From a virus: a stretch of DNA of 40,754 bases. Within the stretch, counting starts at the first letter, position 1; the number at the start of each line of letters is the position of its first letter. Below, piece by piece: positions 102-40,298 of this stretch. A program made the position numbers and the translations under genes. The stretch lies in the UHGV virus genome UHGV-1365945. One strand, written 5' to 3'. Under the pieces are notes generated by a model, which saw nothing but the letters and a program-made list of their open reading frames with translations, was not told the origin of the DNA and did no database searches.

Positions 102-1238
102 TTACTTGCCATATTTATTTAGAGCTTCTACCAGATTTGTTTTAGCTTTTTTTGTAACATGAGTATAAATTTTTAAAGTTGTTTCCGTGTCAACGTGGCC
201 TACACGTTCCATTATTGCTTTTACTGGTACATTTAATTCTGCAAGTAGTGAAATATGAGAATGTCTAAAAATATGACTTGATATAGTTTTGTTTATTTTA
301 TTTTTACCTAGACTTTCATTAGCTTTCTTTAGAGAGGCATTAAATGAATTAACTTGAATTGGTTTGCCCGTTTTGCCAACAAATAGATAATTTGTTTGCT
401 CTTTGAATTTTATTTCTCTTTCTAAAATTAACTCTTCGATTATTTTCACAGCTCTATTTGATAATTCTACTTTCCTGAATGATGCTAGAGTTTTAGGTAA
501 TTCTTTTGTAGCGTTTTTATAACCGTTAGAATAATCCAGAGTTCCATTAACTAAAATAGCATGTTCATTTTTTACATAATCATTTATAGTAAGACTAATT
601 GCTTCACCAGCTCTTAATCCAGTTAAATACATAAACTCTGCTAAACGACCATGATGGACACTTTGAAATGTAGAATAATAATAGTTTAATAATTGATAAA
701 CCTCTTTCTCTTCGAGGTATTTACTTTCTATATTTTCAAAATTTTCTTTTGTTAGTGGGGGTTTAACAACTTTCACTCTATTGATAGGATTTTCATCAAT
801 CATTCCCATGTCTTGTGCATAAGTGAAGGACATGTTAAGCACACTTTTGAATTTTTTCTTATACTCCCAAGAATGCGGTAAATCATTAATAAAGTCTTGG
901 AAAAATTTTGTATCTGTGTTTCTTATGAGTACATCAACATTCATATTGGAAAATATATATTTTAAAATTTTTCCGTAAGCTTTAACTGATGTTTTCCTAA
1001 TAGATAATTGATGTTGTTGCCACCAGCTATTTAAGAGATTCTCTAATGATACTTTTTGTTGATCTTTTTTCTCCATTCGATTATTAATCTTATCCTGTAA
1101 TTCCATCATCGCTTGTTTTTTTGCTTGGTTAGACTTCGAATTAAGTGTAACTGAAACACGTCGATATTTTTCCGTGTACGGATCTTTATATCGCTCAAAG
1201 TATTTAAATTTTCCATTAGGAAGTTCCTCGATCCACAA
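102..1238 (-). CDS. int: Tyrosine-type site-specific integrase (phage integrase family)
   Basis: C-terminal catalytic region contains the R...HxxR...Y pattern (FRHSHISLLAE...LKIYTHV). The N-terminus has the typical WIEELPNGKF motif. A TTG start at 1238 preceded by AAAGGAG 8 nt upstream is preferred over the upstream ATG of the listed ORF (1406). Confidence 0.9.
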   Translation of the reverse strand: MWIEELPNGKFKYFERYKDPYTEKYRRVSVTLNSKSNQAKKQAMMELQDKINNRMEKKDQQKVSLENLLNSWWQQHQLSIRKTSVKAYGKILKYIFSNMNVDVLIRNTDTKFFQDFINDLPHSWEYKKKFKSVLNMSFTYAQDMGMIDENPINRVKVVKPPLTKENFENIESKYLEEKEVYQLLNYYYSTFQSVHHGRLAEFMYLTGLRAGEAISLTINDYVKNEHAILVNGTLDYSNGYKNATKELPKTLASFRKVELSNRAVKIIEELILEREIKFKEQTNYLFVGKTGKPIQVNSFNASLKKANESLGKNKINKTISSHIFRHSHISLLAELNVPVKAIMERVGHVDTETTLKIYTHVTKKAKTNLVEALNKYGK

Positions 1239-1305
1239 TGTTAAAACTCCTTTCGAATGTATGTTCTCAAGTATTGAAAAAAGAAAAGCCCGAAGGCCAT
1301 TCCTT

Positions 1306-1515
1306 TTACTTAAACAAATCCCAAAAGCTAAAAGTTGTTTTATTATATACTTTATTATACATAGCTTTCTTGGGGTTCTTAATGAAACCAGTTCCTTTTT
1401 GCCCATAACCAGGAATTACTGCTTTTTTAAGCTTACGTTTAGCTTTTCCAGTAGTACGAGCACTTATTGATTTTTTTATACTTGGTTTACGCATTCCTAC
1501 TTTCATGTAAAACAC
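1306..1515 (-). CDS. Small lysine-rich basic protein (69 aa) of unknown function; a possible DNA-binding accessory or recombination directionality factor is speculative
   Basis: ORF lying between the lipoprotein gene and int on the same strand, with a highly basic composition. It partly overlaps the extended int ORF but not the preferred int start. Confidence 0.35.
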   Translation of the reverse strand: MFYMKVGMRKPSIKKSISARTTGKAKRKLKKAVIPGYGQKGTGFIKNPKKAMYNKVYNKTTFSFWDLFK

Positions 1516-2490: not shown

Positions 2491-2495
2491 CTTTT

Positions 2496-2969
2496 TTATT
2501 GTAAATTTGTATTTAAAATCATGACTGACAAATCATTAAACTCAAAAATTCTTCCTTTATAAAAATGGGTATCACCAAATTTTTGACGATAATAGGCGAG
2601 TACATTTTTTAGCGTTTCAACGTCTACCCCTAAAAATTCAGCGCACGTGTAATGATTACTGAATCCTGATTCTGAACACTTAATTAAATCATCTAAAGTG
2701 ACTAATTGTTCTAAAGCATATTGTCTAGCTTTTAATTCTTGTTTGCGGTTTTCTAAACAATCCTGGTTTAATATATCGCCAAACGAAGTATCATGGTGAC
2801 CAAGTTCTTCAGCTAGCACATTTCTTTTTTCAACTAGACTCAACGATTTTTCAATATAAATTCTACCATCACGGTACAACCCATAGCATCCAGTATTTTG
2901 AAACAAATCTGTTTCAATAACTGGTGCTTTTTTCTGTACCTCTGACACCAACAGTTCATATTCGTTCAT
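2496..2969 (-). CDS. ImmA/IrrE-family protein (putative anti-repressor metalloprotease) with a degenerate zinc motif
   Basis: Contains an EELGHH motif. It lies immediately downstream of the cI-like repressor gene, the immR-immA arrangement. Start moved to the ATG at 2969, which has AGGAG 6 nt upstream; the 17-bp gap to the repressor stop suggests one operon. The first His of HEXXH is replaced by Glu (EELGH). Confidence 0.6.
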   Translation of the reverse strand: MNEYELLVSEVQKKAPVIETDLFQNTGCYGLYRDGRIYIEKSLSLVEKRNVLAEELGHHDTSFGDILNQDCLENRKQELKARQYALEQLVTLDDLIKCSESGFSNHYTCAEFLGVDVETLKNVLAYYRQKFGDTHFYKGRIFEFNDLSVMILNTNLQ

Positions 2970-37158: not shown

Positions 37159-37257
37159 GTCCAAATCAATTAAAGTAAAATCAAAATTTAATTTAAATAT
37201 TTATAAGAGACCGTTTAGCAAAAGCTAGGCGGTTTTTATTATTGGAAGGTGGAAAAT

Positions 37258-37662
37258 ATGGTGATTATTGATAATCAAGCGTTGATACTAGAATTCAAGA
37301 ATATGATTTCTAACGGTTTTATTCAGGTGTTTGTCTGGATTGTGTTAGGGGATATCTTAACAGGATTATGTAAAGGTATTTTCATTAAGGAAGGAAATAG
37401 CACAAAAGGATTGCTAGGATTAGTAAAACATTTATTAGTGGTCTGCTTAATAAGCGTTGCTTATCCATACTTGAAAATCATGGGTCTAGAATCAATCGCT
37501 ACTGGATTTGTCTTATTTTATATAGCAGTGTATGGCATTTCCATTATTGAAAACTTAGGGCAGTTAGGCGTTCCCTTTCCTTCATGGGTTAAGGAACATT
37601 TAAGTAAATTAAAAGATGAAAATGATAAAGGTGGTGAACCTAAAGATGGTGCAAGTGATTAA
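37258..37662 (+). CDS. Holin
   Basis: Small protein with several TM segments immediately upstream of, and overlapping, the endolysin gene. RBS GGAAGGTGG. Confidence 0.7.
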   Translation: MVIIDNQALILEFKNMISNGFIQVFVWIVLGDILTGLCKGIFIKEGNSTKGLLGLVKHLLVVCLISVAYPYLKIMGLESIATGFVLFYIAVYGISIIENLGQLGVPFPSWVKEHLSKLKDENDKGGEPKDGASD

Positions 37663-38479
37663 TCAATCTGTTTGCAGTGGGATTGCTGGGAGACGTCCTA
37701 ATGCAACGCCAAAAGGTGTTGTCATTCATAATGATGCCGGAAGTATTTATGCGACCGCTGCACAGTATGTTAATGCCTTGGCTGTAATGTCTCCTACACA
37801 ACTGGCGAATGGTTTTGCTCATTATTATATTGATCGAAATACAATTGCACGTGTAGAAGATACATTCAATGCAGCATGGCACACAGCGAATCCAGAGGGG
37901 AATTTGAACTATGTTGGCTATGAAGTATGTCAATCAATGGGTGCTAGCGATGCCGATTTTTTAGCTAATGAACAAATGACATTTAAACAAGTTGCTGAAG
38001 ATATGAAGTTTTGGGGAATGTACCCTAATAGAGATACTGTAAGATTACACAAAGAATTTGTTCCTACGGCATGTCCTCACCGTTCCTGGGAATTGCATGG
38101 AAAAGAAACAAATGCTGTAAAAGACTATTTTATTAGCCAAATAAAAAAATATATGAGCAATCCAAACGAAGGCAATGGCGATTCAAATAATAACAATCAA
38201 AATAATATAAAAGGTGGAGAAACGACTATGCAATGTTTATACGAAAGACCAATTAATTCAAAAACAGGTAAACTAGAATGGAATGGAGATGCTTGGACAG
38301 TAATGTTTTGTAACGGAGTTAACACAAGACGTGTCTCTCATCCAGATGAAATGAAAGTCATTGAGGACTTATACAAGAAAAACAATGGCAAAGATATTCC
38401 TTTCTATGGACAAGATAAATGGAACAAAAATGCGCCTTGGTATAATCGCTTAGAAGCTATGTTTCTAGTCGTAAAATAA
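37646..38479 (+). CDS. Endolysin: N-acetylmuramoyl-L-alanine amidase (Amidase_2/PGRP-type) with a C-terminal cell-wall-binding region
   Basis: GIAGRRPNATPKGVVIHNDAGS...HYYIDRN...HTANPEGN...CPHR motifs. Start ATG 37646 (RBS GGTGGTG). Confidence 0.85.
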   Translation: MVQVINQSVCSGIAGRRPNATPKGVVIHNDAGSIYATAAQYVNALAVMSPTQLANGFAHYYIDRNTIARVEDTFNAAWHTANPEGNLNYVGYEVCQSMGASDADFLANEQMTFKQVAEDMKFWGMYPNRDTVRLHKEFVPTACPHRSWELHGKETNAVKDYFISQIKKYMSNPNEGNGDSNNNNQNNIKGGETTMQCLYERPINSKTGKLEWNGDAWTVMFCNGVNTRRVSHPDEMKVIEDLYKKNNGKDIPFYGQDKWNKNAPWYNRLEAMFLVVK

Positions 38480-38522: not shown

Positions 38523-39092
38523 TTAATTCAATATTTTATCTTTAAAATATGGAATAAGCTTTCTTTCTGACTTGATTTTTGTTTTATTTATGTTGCCATA
38601 TCTGCCATTGTACTTTAATGAAATATTTCCGTCACCATAACCTGTAGAAGCCTTTAATTCGTAATTTGGTATATTTTCGCTTTCAAGGTAGGCTATTTTA
38701 AAAACATCACCAGGTTCTAAAGACTTTTTAATTCCAGTTGATTTGTATTTAGGTGAGTTGTCTTTTTCCATAGATTCAAATTTTAAAATTTCAATAGTCA
38801 TTGGAATTTCTAAAGAAGAAACTAAAACTACTTTATTTGGTTCTTTGTCTAGATTTACTTCATCGACTATGTTATTACTATAAGGTTCGTCTTTAGAAAC
38901 AAAAGGGTAAAACTCTACTGAGATATCTTCATAGTATGTTTTGTTCAAACAGAAACCTAATACGATGATAGTAAATGATATGGCTACTTTAACCACTTTC
39001 GAAATAGAATTGTTATGTTTTTTGTACCAGCTTGTAAACTTATTTGTAGTTACCTTTATTTTCGTTAACATAAAATCATCCTTTTTAAACAA
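38523..39092 (-). CDS. AT-rich accessory membrane-anchored protein (189 aa); candidate exclusion/abortive-infection-type moron
   Basis: N-terminal TM segment VVKVAISFTIIVLGFCL. Lys/Asn-rich, low-GC gene at the prophage end, downstream of an HTH gene. Confidence 0.6.
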   Translation of the reverse strand: MFKKDDFMLTKIKVTTNKFTSWYKKHNNSISKVVKVAISFTIIVLGFCLNKTYYEDISVEFYPFVSKDEPYSNNIVDEVNLDKEPNKVVLVSSLEIPMTIEILKFESMEKDNSPKYKSTGIKKSLEPGDVFKIAYLESENIPNYELKASTGYGDGNISLKYNGRYGNINKTKIKSERKLIPYFKDKILN

Positions 39093-39120: not shown

Positions 39121-39321
39121 TTAAAATTCAATTTTATCTTTAATTAATTTATCAAAATACTTCACTAACAATTCAGCTTTGCCCAGACCGATATTTTCAA
39201 TAGCAGTTTTTCCACTTCTGATTTTGTCGATGTATTGCGTGCTGATTCCAGTTTCTTTTGCAATACGATAGCTCGTTAAATCCATGTCTATTAATTTTTC
39301 GATTTTTTCAGTGTAAGTCAT
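39121..39321 (-). CDS. XRE-family HTH transcriptional regulator (66 aa)
   Basis: LTSYRIAKETGISTQYIDKIRSGK is a helix-turn-helix. Confidence 0.65.
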   Translation of the reverse strand: MTYTEKIEKLIDMDLTSYRIAKETGISTQYIDKIRSGKTAIENIGLGKAELLVKYFDKLIKDKIEF

Positions 39322-39329
39322 TTAATCAA

Positions 39330-39477
39330 CTACTTTCTTTTGCTTAATATGCCTACAATTAACAAGATTACCAAGTAAGTAATCCAGTTAATCACATTGA
39401 AAACTGTAAGTCCTAAACCAACTAATACAACAGCAAGTAATGTTAATCCGTAAGCTTTATTTTTCATATTATTCATG
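39330..39477 (-). CDS. Small two-segment hydrophobic peptide (~49 aa, MNNMKNKAYGLTLLAVVLVGLGLTVFNVINWITYLVILLIVGILSKRK)
   Basis: ORF not in the track (too short). Lies between the Fst-like gene and the HTH gene on the same strand. Confidence 0.35.
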
Positions 39478-39497
39478 CTAGAATTAATTTATAGAAA

Positions 39498-39513
39498 GGG
39501 AGCCTTAGCTCCC
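39498..39513. terminator. Hairpin GGGAGC-ctta-GCTCCC immediately 3' of the Fst-like peptide gene (bidirectional terminator-like)
   Basis: Perfect 6-bp stem with AT-rich flanks on both sides. Confidence 0.5.
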
Positions 39514-39524
39514 AATCATTATTC

Positions 39525-39626
39525 TTATTTGTCGTCGTTATCGTCTTTTAAAAGTTCTTTTACAATTTTTGCGGATTGGAGAACTCCTAGGACGATTGCG
39601 ACGGCTTTTCCTATATCGTCTAGCAC
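39525..39626 (-). CDS. Fst/Ldr-like type I toxin peptide (33 aa: (V/M)LDDIGKAVAIVLGVLQSAKIVKELLKDDNDDK)
   Basis: GTG start 8 nt after AGGAGG, a strong promoter and a 3' hairpin. Hydrophobic core AIVLGVL resembles the Fst PIFVGLVL region. Acidic C-terminal tail, as in Fst (33 aa, ...DEEDDSRK). Confidence 0.5.
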   Translation of the reverse strand: MLDDIGKAVAIVLGVLQSAKIVKELLKDDNDDK

Positions 39627-39653
39627 ATGTTTCACCTCCTTAACTATATTCAT

Positions 39654-39682
39654 ATTATACAACTGTAGTTGTATAAAGTCAA
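39654..39682 (-). promoter_or_regulatory. Strong sigma-A-type promoter (TTGACT-17-TATAAT) for the minus-strand cassette, with a 22-bp palindrome TTATACAACTGTAGTTGTATAA filling the spacer (operator)
   Basis: Consensus-like hexamers with a 17-nt spacer. A perfect inverted repeat occupies the spacer. Confidence 0.6.
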
Positions 39683-39721
39683 TAGTTATCTTAAAAAGAT
39701 TTGAATTTTAACGATTCTTTC

Positions 39722-39750
39722 TTGAAAAAACAAACTTATGTTCGTATAAT
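39722..39750 (+). promoter_or_regulatory. Promoter TTGAAA-17-TATAAT for gene 39775..40260
   Basis: Consensus-like hexamers and spacing; RBS GGAGAG follows. Confidence 0.55.
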
Positions 39751-39774
39751 GTTTTCGATAGGAGAGTGTATCAG

Positions 39775-40260
39775 ATGGTGAGACGAACTAAAAAAGAGTT
39801 TAAACCTTACAATGATTATGTTGACAGGCCATTTGAACTAAAGTGGCCAACGGCGTTTCCGTTAGGCGAATTAACTGAAGCAATAAAGAGCACTGATGAA
39901 TATCACGCTCGAAATATTGAGAGACTACCACAACAATCCCAAAACCAAATAGAATATTTTTTAGACCGCTCAATTAAACATAATAAGGTACTAGAGATTC
40001 AATTGAATTCGTTAGATGAATATGACCGTGTGAAACCACATGTTTTTGGTGTTTTTCGTGGAATGGCTGAGTTTGATGTTGTTCTAATTGGTGAACAAGA
40101 AATCGATTTTTACGACATAAGACATATTCAGATTCATAACTTCACGAAATGGAGTGAAGAGCATGTGACTGAAGAAAATCCATTCGACGAAGAACAAGAA
40201 CGCTGCGAAACAATAGATGAATTCGTAGATGAATATTTTGATGATGAATGGATAGAATAA
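39775..40260 (+). CDS. Hypothetical acidic protein (~161 aa)
   Basis: ATG 39775 with a GGAGAG RBS. Strong terminator downstream. Confidence 0.5.
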   Translation: MVRRTKKEFKPYNDYVDRPFELKWPTAFPLGELTEAIKSTDEYHARNIERLPQQSQNQIEYFLDRSIKHNKVLEIQLNSLDEYDRVKPHVFGVFRGMAEFDVVLIGEQEIDFYDIRHIQIHNFTKWSEEHVTEENPFDEEQERCETIDEFVDEYFDDEWIE

Positions 40261-40261
40261 T

Positions 40262-40298
40262 AAAACCCCAACTCTTATCTTGAGTTGGGGTTTTATTT
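40262..40298. terminator. Bidirectional rho-independent terminator AAAACCCCAACTC-ttatctt-GAGTTGGGGTTTT
   Basis: Perfect 11-bp GC-rich stem flanked by A and T runs. Confidence 0.8.

Follow-up and report, generated by a model that had tools for sequence, protein, structure and literature searches.

A small membrane-type peptide gene with candidate RNA-level gating heads a proposed Aca-style autorepressed operon in an Enterococcus faecalis prophage

A 33-amino-acid open reading frame (ORF) on the minus strand of UHGV virus genome UHGV-1365945 raises the question of whether a peptide gene with a strong promoter, a palindrome between its promoter hexamers and a hairpin behind its stop codon belongs to a known toxin family, is another peptide controlled as toxins are, or serves some different purpose. 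We refer to the whole 40,754-nucleotide stretch that was analysed as the window; all coordinates are window coordinates, and the operon discussed lies on the minus strand. A preliminary description, made by inspecting the sequence, had proposed a stand-alone Fst/Ldr-like type I toxin mini-gene. The peptide gene does not stand alone, being the first cistron of an operon with at least three genes, which encode the 33-amino-acid peptide, a 48-amino-acid transmembrane protein and a 66-amino-acid helix-turn-helix (HTH) protein. From the combination of predicted RNA-level gating with an Aca-type autorepressor and a fold-back onto the start site, we arrive at a reading that we hold to have an even chance of being right, namely that the locus is a type-I-toxin-like gated peptide inside an Aca-style autorepressed operon, with the toxicity of the peptide suggested by analogy.

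That the short ORF is a real gene can be stated plainly. Positions 39626-39525 (minus strand, GTG start, MLDDIGKAVAIVLGVLQSAKIVKELLKDDNDDK) encode (M)LDDIGKAVAIVLGVLQSAKIVKELLKDDNDDK, and database searches, one with a 45-amino-acid upstream-extended ORF as the query (P0001-P0003) and another (P0002, P0004-P0006), returned homologs in differing genomic contexts. Two homologs have an ATG one codon ahead of the shared LDDIG, which supports the short 33-amino-acid reading. Between the window and either of two homologous loci, L011 and L009, the proportion of synonymous differences (pS) is 0.63-0.68, which is near saturation, against a proportion of nonsynonymous differences (pN) of 0.05-0.06 (0.68 and 0.06 for L011), and the gene is thus under purifying selection. 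The best 15-residue stretch of the peptide has a Kyte-Doolittle (KD) hydropathy of 2.01 and the best 19-residue stretch a borderline value of 1.60, with relatives at 2.0-2.4. The generic description of a type I toxin as a small hydrophobic or membrane-active peptide under selection therefore applies to this product, with hydropathy as the borderline element. No meaningful match to the peptide was obtained in Pfam, PHROGs, PADLOC, NCBIfam or PDB sequences, tblastn searches of phage and plasmid collections gave no match, and DNA searches of the region in annotated collections matched the flanking genes and nothing else. A 78-amino-acid ORF on the opposite strand (39475-39711, plus strand), already suspected to be spurious in the preliminary description, can be rejected as a gene: its frame is open in the window and the closest relative only, and is broken in diverged homologous loci.

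The operon promoter (TTGACT-17-TATAAT, 39682-39654) matches the consensus at 11 of 12 positions, with the -35 hexamer at 39677..39682 and the -10 hexamer at 39654..39659 on the minus strand, and is predicted from spacing to start transcription near 39647. Promoter-like sites in the region are no more frequent than chance predicts (11 found, 11.2 expected), so that the case for this promoter comes from comparison and not from statistics: TTGACx is kept at the same position in L009, L011 and Listeria phage B025. A promoter scan gave the second and third genes no promoters of their own. The entire 17-nucleotide spacer is filled by a palindrome, TTATACAACT-GT-AGTTGTATAA (39655..39676, both strands), which has perfect 10-bp arms and overlaps 5 nucleotides of the -10 hexamer. 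It is present as a single copy, where 0.09 copies would be expected by chance at up to 3 mismatches, and no second copy was found in the window, including at the divergent promoter described below. The predicted transcript would begin with a 5' untranslated region (UTR), AUAUAGUUAAGGAGGUGAAACAU (39627..39647, minus strand), whose Shine-Dalgarno (SD) sequence AGGAGG (39640-39635) lies 8 nucleotides ahead of the GTG (39626-39624). The preliminary description had correctly picked out the near-perfect promoter driving the peptide gene, the 22-bp spacer-filling palindrome (quoted in its plus-strand reading) and the AGGAGG-8-GTG arrangement.

The same anatomy recurs in Bacillota prophages well beyond the window. 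The homologous loci and B025 share a promoter of the form TTGACx-17-TATAAT with a palindromic spacer, a short UTR, a peptide of about 33 amino acids and a GC-rich hairpin, followed by a 45-55-amino-acid transmembrane protein without an SD sequence and then a small DNA-binding protein; we refer to this set as the module. With the UTR as the search pattern, a scan of viral contigs yielded about 45 distinct small ORFs, roughly 30 of them with the whole module, and a scan of genomes located it in Ligilactobacillus, Weissella, Virgibacillus, Floricoccus, Veillonella, Peptostreptococcus, Romboutsia, Tyzzerella and three more Enterococcus species. A protein search that did not depend on the pattern found one peptide type in Clostridioides difficile phages, again with the same anatomy. 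The module peptides comprise about 10 unrelated types, each combining a helix, hydrophobic or amphipathic, with one end that is highly charged; because many modules are related, the module counts overstate independence, and it is these 10 or so types that are independent. The UTR of the window is nearly identical to those of the Listeria B025 and C. difficile phiMMP01 modules, and the module consensus reads TATAATAT(G/A)AATATAG..AAGGAG. We also observed that the leader (A)TA(A/G)AATATAG between the -10 hexamer and the SD sequence (39641-39653 in the window) hardly varies between Enterococcus, Listeria and C. difficile, despite unrelated coding sequences. Separately, a Veillonella metagenome-assembled genome (L163) carries two complete modules in tandem on its minus strand, at offsets 6097 and 6812 and thus about 700 nucleotides apart, which differ in their peptides and operators.

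What might act on the spacer palindrome is indicated by the third gene. The 66-amino-acid HTH protein (39121..39321, minus strand) matches the N-terminal domain (NTD) of AcrIIA15 (PDB 8jfr/8jfo) over residues 5-59 in a phmmer search (E 3.5e-7), and its AlphaFold2 model (pLDDT 91.8) has four helices. Foldseek matched this model to 8jfr_A, which is AcrIIA15-NTD bound to palindromic DNA (TM-score 0.84/0.90, root-mean-square deviation 0.6 Å, 38% identity), with Aca11 next. The AcrIIA15-NTD dimer binds inverted repeats, including one between the -35 and -10 hexamers, and represses its own promoter, with K31 being essential (PMC10901769, PMC7104187). This lysine and the DNA-contacting serine S25 align with a lysine and a serine in the 66-amino-acid protein, such that homology in sequence and fold includes the DNA-contact helix. 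Judged by alignment and model, the protein is an AcrIIA15-NTD/Aca11-type autorepressor, and it would be expected to bind the palindrome. The third gene of B025, L011 and many other modules matches instead the Aca13 domain of AcrIIA32 (E 7e-11), a domain shown to bind an inverted repeat between the -35 and -10 hexamers (PMC12282945), and in others it is AbrB-like or HTH_17-like. As a side observation, the third gene of a close relative of the window module (L014, 3342-3695) encodes 117 amino acids, consisting of an AcrIIA15-NTD-like HTH and a C-terminal extension of about 50 amino acids that is reminiscent of the AcrIIA13-15 regulator-inhibitor fusions.

A palindrome occupies the spacer in every module, and its sequence differs with the third gene. 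For example, the MCSFKGLYSF-type regulator is always paired with TATCACGYATRCGTGATA, whatever the peptide, and peptides of the LDDIGK family are found alongside three regulator types, with three different palindromes. Pairs of modules that share the third gene but not the peptide have a spacer identity of 0.56, those that share the peptide but not the third gene 0.49, and those that share neither 0.40; this is a modest statistic, in which a 45% identity cut-off lumps regulators of different specificity, and individual cases are clearer. The palindrome follows the third gene and not the peptide. Control by the palindrome and the downstream HTH protein, offered in the preliminary description as a fallback, is therefore strongly supported by the AcrIIA15-NTD/Aca11 homology and by this co-variation.

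The middle gene encodes a two-helix membrane protein of 48 amino acids, or 45 if translation begins at the second ATG (39467), and has no SD sequence (39330..39476, minus strand). A small transmembrane ORF follows the hairpin in essentially all modules, and the motif FNVINW(I/L)TY is conserved between the window and L011. No meaningful match to this protein was found in Pfam, PHROGs, PADLOC, NCBIfam or PDB sequences. It is a separate curiosity that this second gene consistently lacks an SD sequence in the window, L009, L011, L020 (the B025 locus) and L140, yet the protein is conserved.

Between the peptide gene and the transmembrane gene stands a GC-rich hairpin, GGGAGC-taag-GCTCCC (39498..39513, both strands), with an SD-like 5' arm and an anti-SD-like 3' arm. 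At the same place, hairpins of differing sequence were present in 29 of the 40 distinct small-ORF loci that the viral scan yielded, and at 13 loci in the genome scan. The window hairpin scores as terminator-like on both strands (3 such sites in the region against 0.9 expected), which agrees with part of the earlier proposal that it is a bidirectional terminator. However, its T-tract (TTTCTAT) is poor and is not conserved in the family, and because of this, and because the second and third genes have no promoters of their own, the hairpin is at most a partial terminator, and bidirectional termination is not supported as its main role. Simple sequestration of the SD sequence by the 3' arm was expected and then rejected, as minimum free energy (MFE) folds show it in few modules.

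A more consistent relationship involves the 22 nucleotides past the hairpin, which in each module show complementarity to its own start codon and the codons that follow. In the window, this fold-back tail, UUUCUAUAAAUUAAUUCUAGCA (39476..39497, minus strand), contains UCUAGCA (39482-39476), which pairs with UGCUAGA (39625-39619), and UUUCUAU (39497-39491), which pairs with AUAGGAA within AUAGGAAA (39614-39607). The cognate duplex has a predicted energy of -12.6 kcal/mol, compared with a mean of -6.3 kcal/mol for the tails of other modules (rank 0 of 22). Across the family, cognate duplexes average -11.9 kcal/mol and non-cognate duplexes -5.9 kcal/mol, and 0 of 20,000 permutations reach the observed mean. 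The complementarity is module-specific, and it may act on translation of the peptide.

The tail also harbours a candidate promoter pointing the other way. The preliminary description had found no convincing convergent promoter for an antitoxin RNA, but an extended -10 element, TGCTAGAAT (39476..39484, plus strand), lies just to the right of the place where it looked and overturns that statement. The pattern TGnTAnnnT is conserved on the antisense strand past the hairpin, being found within 45 nucleotides in 21 of 29 viral modules and 12 of 13 genomic modules, versus 3.5 ± 1.8 in shuffles and 1 of 29 on the sense strand, which amounts to an enrichment of about six-fold. The TG and TA are invariant in the alignment and the neighbouring bases vary. 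Furthermore, the tail is an inverted copy of the start region, and in the window, L009 and B025 it is the departures from that region that create the -10 element: TGCTAGAAT replaces TGCTAGACG in the window, TGATAAAAT replaces TGATGAAGT in L009, and in B025 the element TGTTATAAT sits in extra bases that the start region does not have. Antisense transcription is predicted to start near 39491, just before the hairpin, and would generate an rli48-like RNA (39491..39636, plus strand, 3' end uncertain) that covers the hairpin and the peptide ORF.

A counterpart with documented transcripts exists in Listeria. The Rfam family RF01479 (rli48) matches 39472-39636 (plus strand) over the full model, 1-149, with 27.8 bits (E 0.005-0.025), which is far below the gathering score of 100; homology of the two loci rests on synteny and shared anatomy with B025. 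The RNAs rli48 and rli98 are an antisense pair in an A118-like prophage with published transcripts (PMC4179725); rli48 has been reported as up-regulated in the intestine, and both RNAs in macrophages (PMC4179725, PMC3105390, PMC3556495, PMC2996996). We mapped the published rli48 and rli98 primers (PMC6786865) onto B025, whose module has the same anatomy as that of the window. By this mapping, rli98 lies on the peptide-sense strand (2642..2491), from the ORF start to 29 nucleotides past the hairpin, and rli48 lies antisense to it (2494..2600), with a designed 5' end that contains TGTTATAAT. Antisense transcripts are thus documented for the Listeria homolog, and the Enterococcus antisense RNA is predicted from its promoter element. 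The conserved convergent antisense promoter, the 5'-3' fold-back over the start site and the Listeria sense/antisense RNA pair together lend comparative support to type I hallmarks at this locus. We noticed in addition that three annotated genes of B025 (L020, DQ003639; 2107-2711), gp29, gp30 and gp31, are placed opposite the conserved peptide, transmembrane and Aca13-like genes, and that these coding sequences are probably mis-called.

If these elements work together as we suspect, the locus would be a 'moron' operon carried by lysogens and placed behind the lysin gene of a temperate E. faecalis phage, with a near-consensus sigma-70 promoter driving the 33-amino-acid membrane-type peptide, the two-helix membrane protein and the Aca-type HTH protein. 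Transcription might be gated by an HTH dimer that binds the spacer palindrome and represses its own operon, as suggested by the AcrIIA15-NTD homology and the co-variation of operator and regulator. Translation might be gated in cis by the 22 nucleotides past the hairpin folding onto the start codon and first codons, in the manner of the hok fold-back inhibition (fbi) element or AapA1. A further gate could be provided by the convergent RNA that would arise just outside the hairpin and cover both hairpin and ORF, and by analogy with SR6, SR4 and RatA this RNA may be repressive. The likely biology would be that of a type-I-toxin-like peptide for prophage maintenance or for exclusion or abortive infection, with the transmembrane protein perhaps acting as a second toxin or an immunity partner.

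Several points weigh against this interpretation. The conservation of promoter and UTR arises partly by construction, because the modules were gathered partly with that pattern. In MFE folds the SD sequence itself is paired in a minority of modules, and the tail more usually covers the start codon with the codons next to it. The antisense RNA has no evident terminator and could, by pairing with the tail, open the fold-back instead of repressing, and the rli48 match falls short of its family threshold. The peptide is net acidic and borderline hydrophobic over 19 residues, and it fits no toxin family in Pfam-A at E ≤ 10. Toxicity, and any transcript in Enterococcus, are deduced by comparison with other systems. 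Finally, Aca-type regulators are otherwise known from anti-CRISPR (Acr) operons, which points to a different function for the payload.

This last point leads to the alternative that we judge unlikely and yet far from negligible, in which the locus is an acr-aca-style anti-defence or superinfection-exclusion operon with the peptide and the transmembrane protein as non-toxic effectors. Expression would come as a burst on DNA entry followed by Aca-type shutdown, the antisense RNA and fold-back would fine-tune dosage, and the effectors might, for example, block injection at the membrane or inhibit a membrane-associated defence. Such a view accommodates the AcrIIA15-NTD/Aca11 homology here and the Aca13 homology in other modules, the inverted repeat, which occupies the -35/-10 spacer just as it does in acr promoters (PMC10901769, PMC12282945, PMC7104187), the post-lysin location that is typical of moron or accessory genes, and the C-terminal extension of the L014-type third gene, which recalls the AcrIIA13-15 fusions. 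It sits less comfortably with the payloads, which are 28-47-amino-acid charged-plus-hydrophobic peptides and tiny transmembrane proteins, unlike known soluble Acr proteins, and which have no match in PADLOC, the PHROGs function classes or PDB; the peptide and transmembrane protein show no similarity to any solved or curated Acr protein, and their membrane-type composition is atypical for one. Moreover, elaborate conserved translational gating combined with an antisense promoter is typical of toxins. In two viral contigs (L062 and L104), a hicA-like toxin gene and then a hicB-like antitoxin gene are driven by this promoter/UTR cassette, there equipped with a spacer palindrome of its own, TTACGTAAATTACGTAA. 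Because it also drives hicA-hicB, the cassette is a general autoregulated expression unit shared by toxin-antitoxin systems, and Aca-like autoregulation is not specific to anti-defence cargo. The gated-peptide interpretation differs as well from one in which the ORF is a regulatory leader whose translation opens the fold-back and so controls the SD-less transmembrane gene and the repressor, its product being functionless. The fold-back tail does adjoin or overlap the transmembrane start codon, and transmembrane genes lack an SD sequence throughout the family. However, purifying selection on the peptide is strong (pN/pS about 0.08 at near-saturated synonymous sites), unrelated peptide types share a physico-chemical design, and re-initiation coupling is disfavoured because a strong hairpin and 45-70 nucleotides separate the stop codon from the next start, such that we find a leader role improbable.

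The original assignment, bona fide membership of the Fst/Ldr (par) type I toxin family, now appears to us very improbable indeed. Its appeal lay in genuine likenesses to Fst and its RNA I-RNA II system (par of pAD1), which include a 33-amino-acid peptide with a hydrophobic core and an acidic C-terminal tail, an Enterococcus host and, as predicted for the window, convergent transcription across a shared hairpin. Nevertheless, hmmscan against Pfam-A at E ≤ 10 gave 0 families for the peptide, whether Fst/Ldr (PF13955) or any other toxin family, and no type I toxin family for nine related module peptides. The 19-residue hydropathy of 1.60 compares with 2.24 for Fst. No par antitoxin RNA (RNA II) was matched in Rfam at E ≤ 10, and there are no usable direct repeats of the par type, which would be shared between the 5' ends of the convergent RNAs and give complementarity there; one direct repeat alone, D2 (39463-39475 and 39649-39661), touches the 5' region, and it is positioned upstream of where the antisense RNA is predicted to start. 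The antisense promoter of the window would fire into the hairpin, so that its RNA would begin outside this structure, whereas a par-type RNA II would end at the shared terminator. In addition, the window gene shares its operon with the gene of a protein repressor, a feature absent from par. A small probability, somewhat larger than that of a leader peptide, is left for explanations outside those considered here.

The surroundings identify the window as a temperate E. faecalis phage or prophage. An integrase candidate is located at 102-1406 (minus strand), structural genes are on the plus strand, and holin and amidase genes occupy 37249-38479. DNA searches give Enterococcus phages as relatives of the window, and the locus is present in hundreds of E. 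faecalis assemblies, adjoining host genes, with the 66-amino-acid neighbour of the peptide gene indexed in 657 blocks. The lysin position and the adjoining host genes therefore put the 33-amino-acid gene in a post-lysin accessory region close to the end of the prophage. The HTH gene is followed directly by a gene for a 189-amino-acid protein with an N-terminal membrane anchor (38523..39092, minus strand), which is possibly co-transcribed with the operon; it is outside the conserved module, being absent from the L014, L011 and L009 contexts, and had no family match in Pfam or the other protein libraries searched. This anchored protein could be an exclusion-type surface protein. On the other side, a divergent promoter (TTGAAA-17-TATAAT, 39722-39750, plus strand), whose core GTTCGTATAATGTT is common to the window and B025 divergent promoters, drives a gene (39766-40260, plus strand) for an acidic 164-amino-acid protein with no family match. 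We also observed a perfect 16-bp inverted repeat, AATAAAACCCCAACTC-n7-GAGTTGGGGTTTTATT (40259-40297), flanked on either side by A/T runs. Situated between the convergent genes for the 164-amino-acid protein (plus strand) and a 90-amino-acid protein (minus strand), it resembles a textbook bidirectional terminator and gave many weak Rfam matches on both strands.

If the gated-peptide reading is true, a large and taxonomically broad family of prophage small peptides, extending over Enterococcus, Listeria, Clostridioides, lactobacilli, Veillonella and others, has been missed by current annotation, and two infection-regulated Listeria sRNAs become a peptide mRNA and its antisense partner. Aca-type regulators, which serve as markers for finding anti-CRISPRs, would also control membrane-peptide cargo, and this matters for guilt-by-association searches for Acr proteins. 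The predicted three-layer control would represent a testable variant of RNA-controlled toxin systems. In its broadest form, our proposal would be that Bacillota prophages carry an unrecognised and widespread class of hybrid cassettes, in which interchangeable Aca-type autorepressors and type-I-style RNA gating control a two-part membrane peptide system, rli98 and rli48 are a peptide mRNA and its antisense regulator, and anti-CRISPR-type regulation is linked with toxin or exclusion payloads. We advance this generalisation tentatively, as possible but somewhat short of probable.

Among known systems, the Listeria pair occupies a homologous locus in A118/B025-type prophages that is syntenic with that of the window and agrees with it in promoter, UTR, 33-amino-acid ORF, hairpin, transmembrane gene and regulator. 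There, the sense RNA, which covers the peptide ORF, is rli98 and its antisense partner is rli48, as in the pair predicted for the window, although the peptide sequences have diverged so far that VL[DE][DE]I.. alone is shared, and the rli48 literature searched treats both as non-coding sRNAs. A different kind of likeness is found in hok/sok, with its fbi-tac pairing, and in aapA1/IsoA1 of Helicobacter pylori, in which pairing between a 3' portion of the toxin mRNA and the translation-initiation region gives an inert full-length mRNA and the antisense RNA is a second control layer. The window likewise has a 3' segment complementary to the start region, which may have a comparable effect. Unlike the window module, these systems are proteobacterial, have neither a protein repressor nor downstream cistrons, and have an antisense RNA that overlaps the 5' region and not the 3' region.

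The acr-aca operons (AcrIIA15-NTD, Aca11, Aca13) resemble the window operon in having homologous regulators (38% identity and TM-score 0.84-0.90 for the window protein), an inverted repeat between the -35 and -10 hexamers of a strong promoter, a regulator encoded last and a setting in Firmicutes prophage accessory regions (PMC10901769, PMC12282945, PMC7104187). They differ in that the window cargo is a tiny membrane-type peptide and a transmembrane protein, not soluble Acr proteins, and that the window has a single inverted repeat plus predicted RNA-level controls. Prophage toxins of 34-47 amino acids are known from C. difficile, where such systems stabilise prophages (PMC7699646). We considered the C. 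difficile members of the module as CD0977.1-type toxins and rejected this, since those toxins are built differently, being hydrophobic at the N-terminus and rich in Lys in the tail (PMC7699646).

The closest published architecture is that of yonT/yoyJ/SR6 in the Bacillus subtilis prophage SPbeta, where the toxin gene opens an operon, processing of the long mRNA yields a short species, an antisense RNA overlaps the 3' end and a second small toxin is weakly translated (PMC5848175). No sequence similarity between the window module and this system was found, and the likeness is one of layout, documented for yonT and in part predicted for the window: both are prophage-borne, with the toxin or candidate toxin gene leading a polycistronic mRNA that has a promoter of its own, a short monocistronic species beside the long mRNA, an antisense RNA (of about 100 nucleotides for SR6) that starts downstream and overlaps the first gene's 3' end, and a second small, poorly translated hydrophobic protein. 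SR6 also overlaps the 5' end of the second gene, whereas the predicted antisense start in the window is upstream of the transmembrane ORF. The yonT system lacks both an operator-in-spacer promoter and a co-transcribed autorepressor, and a start-site fold-back has not been described for it. What is different about the window module, relative to yonT-type systems, is thus an Aca-type autorepressor at an operator inside the promoter, together with a fold-back onto the start site.

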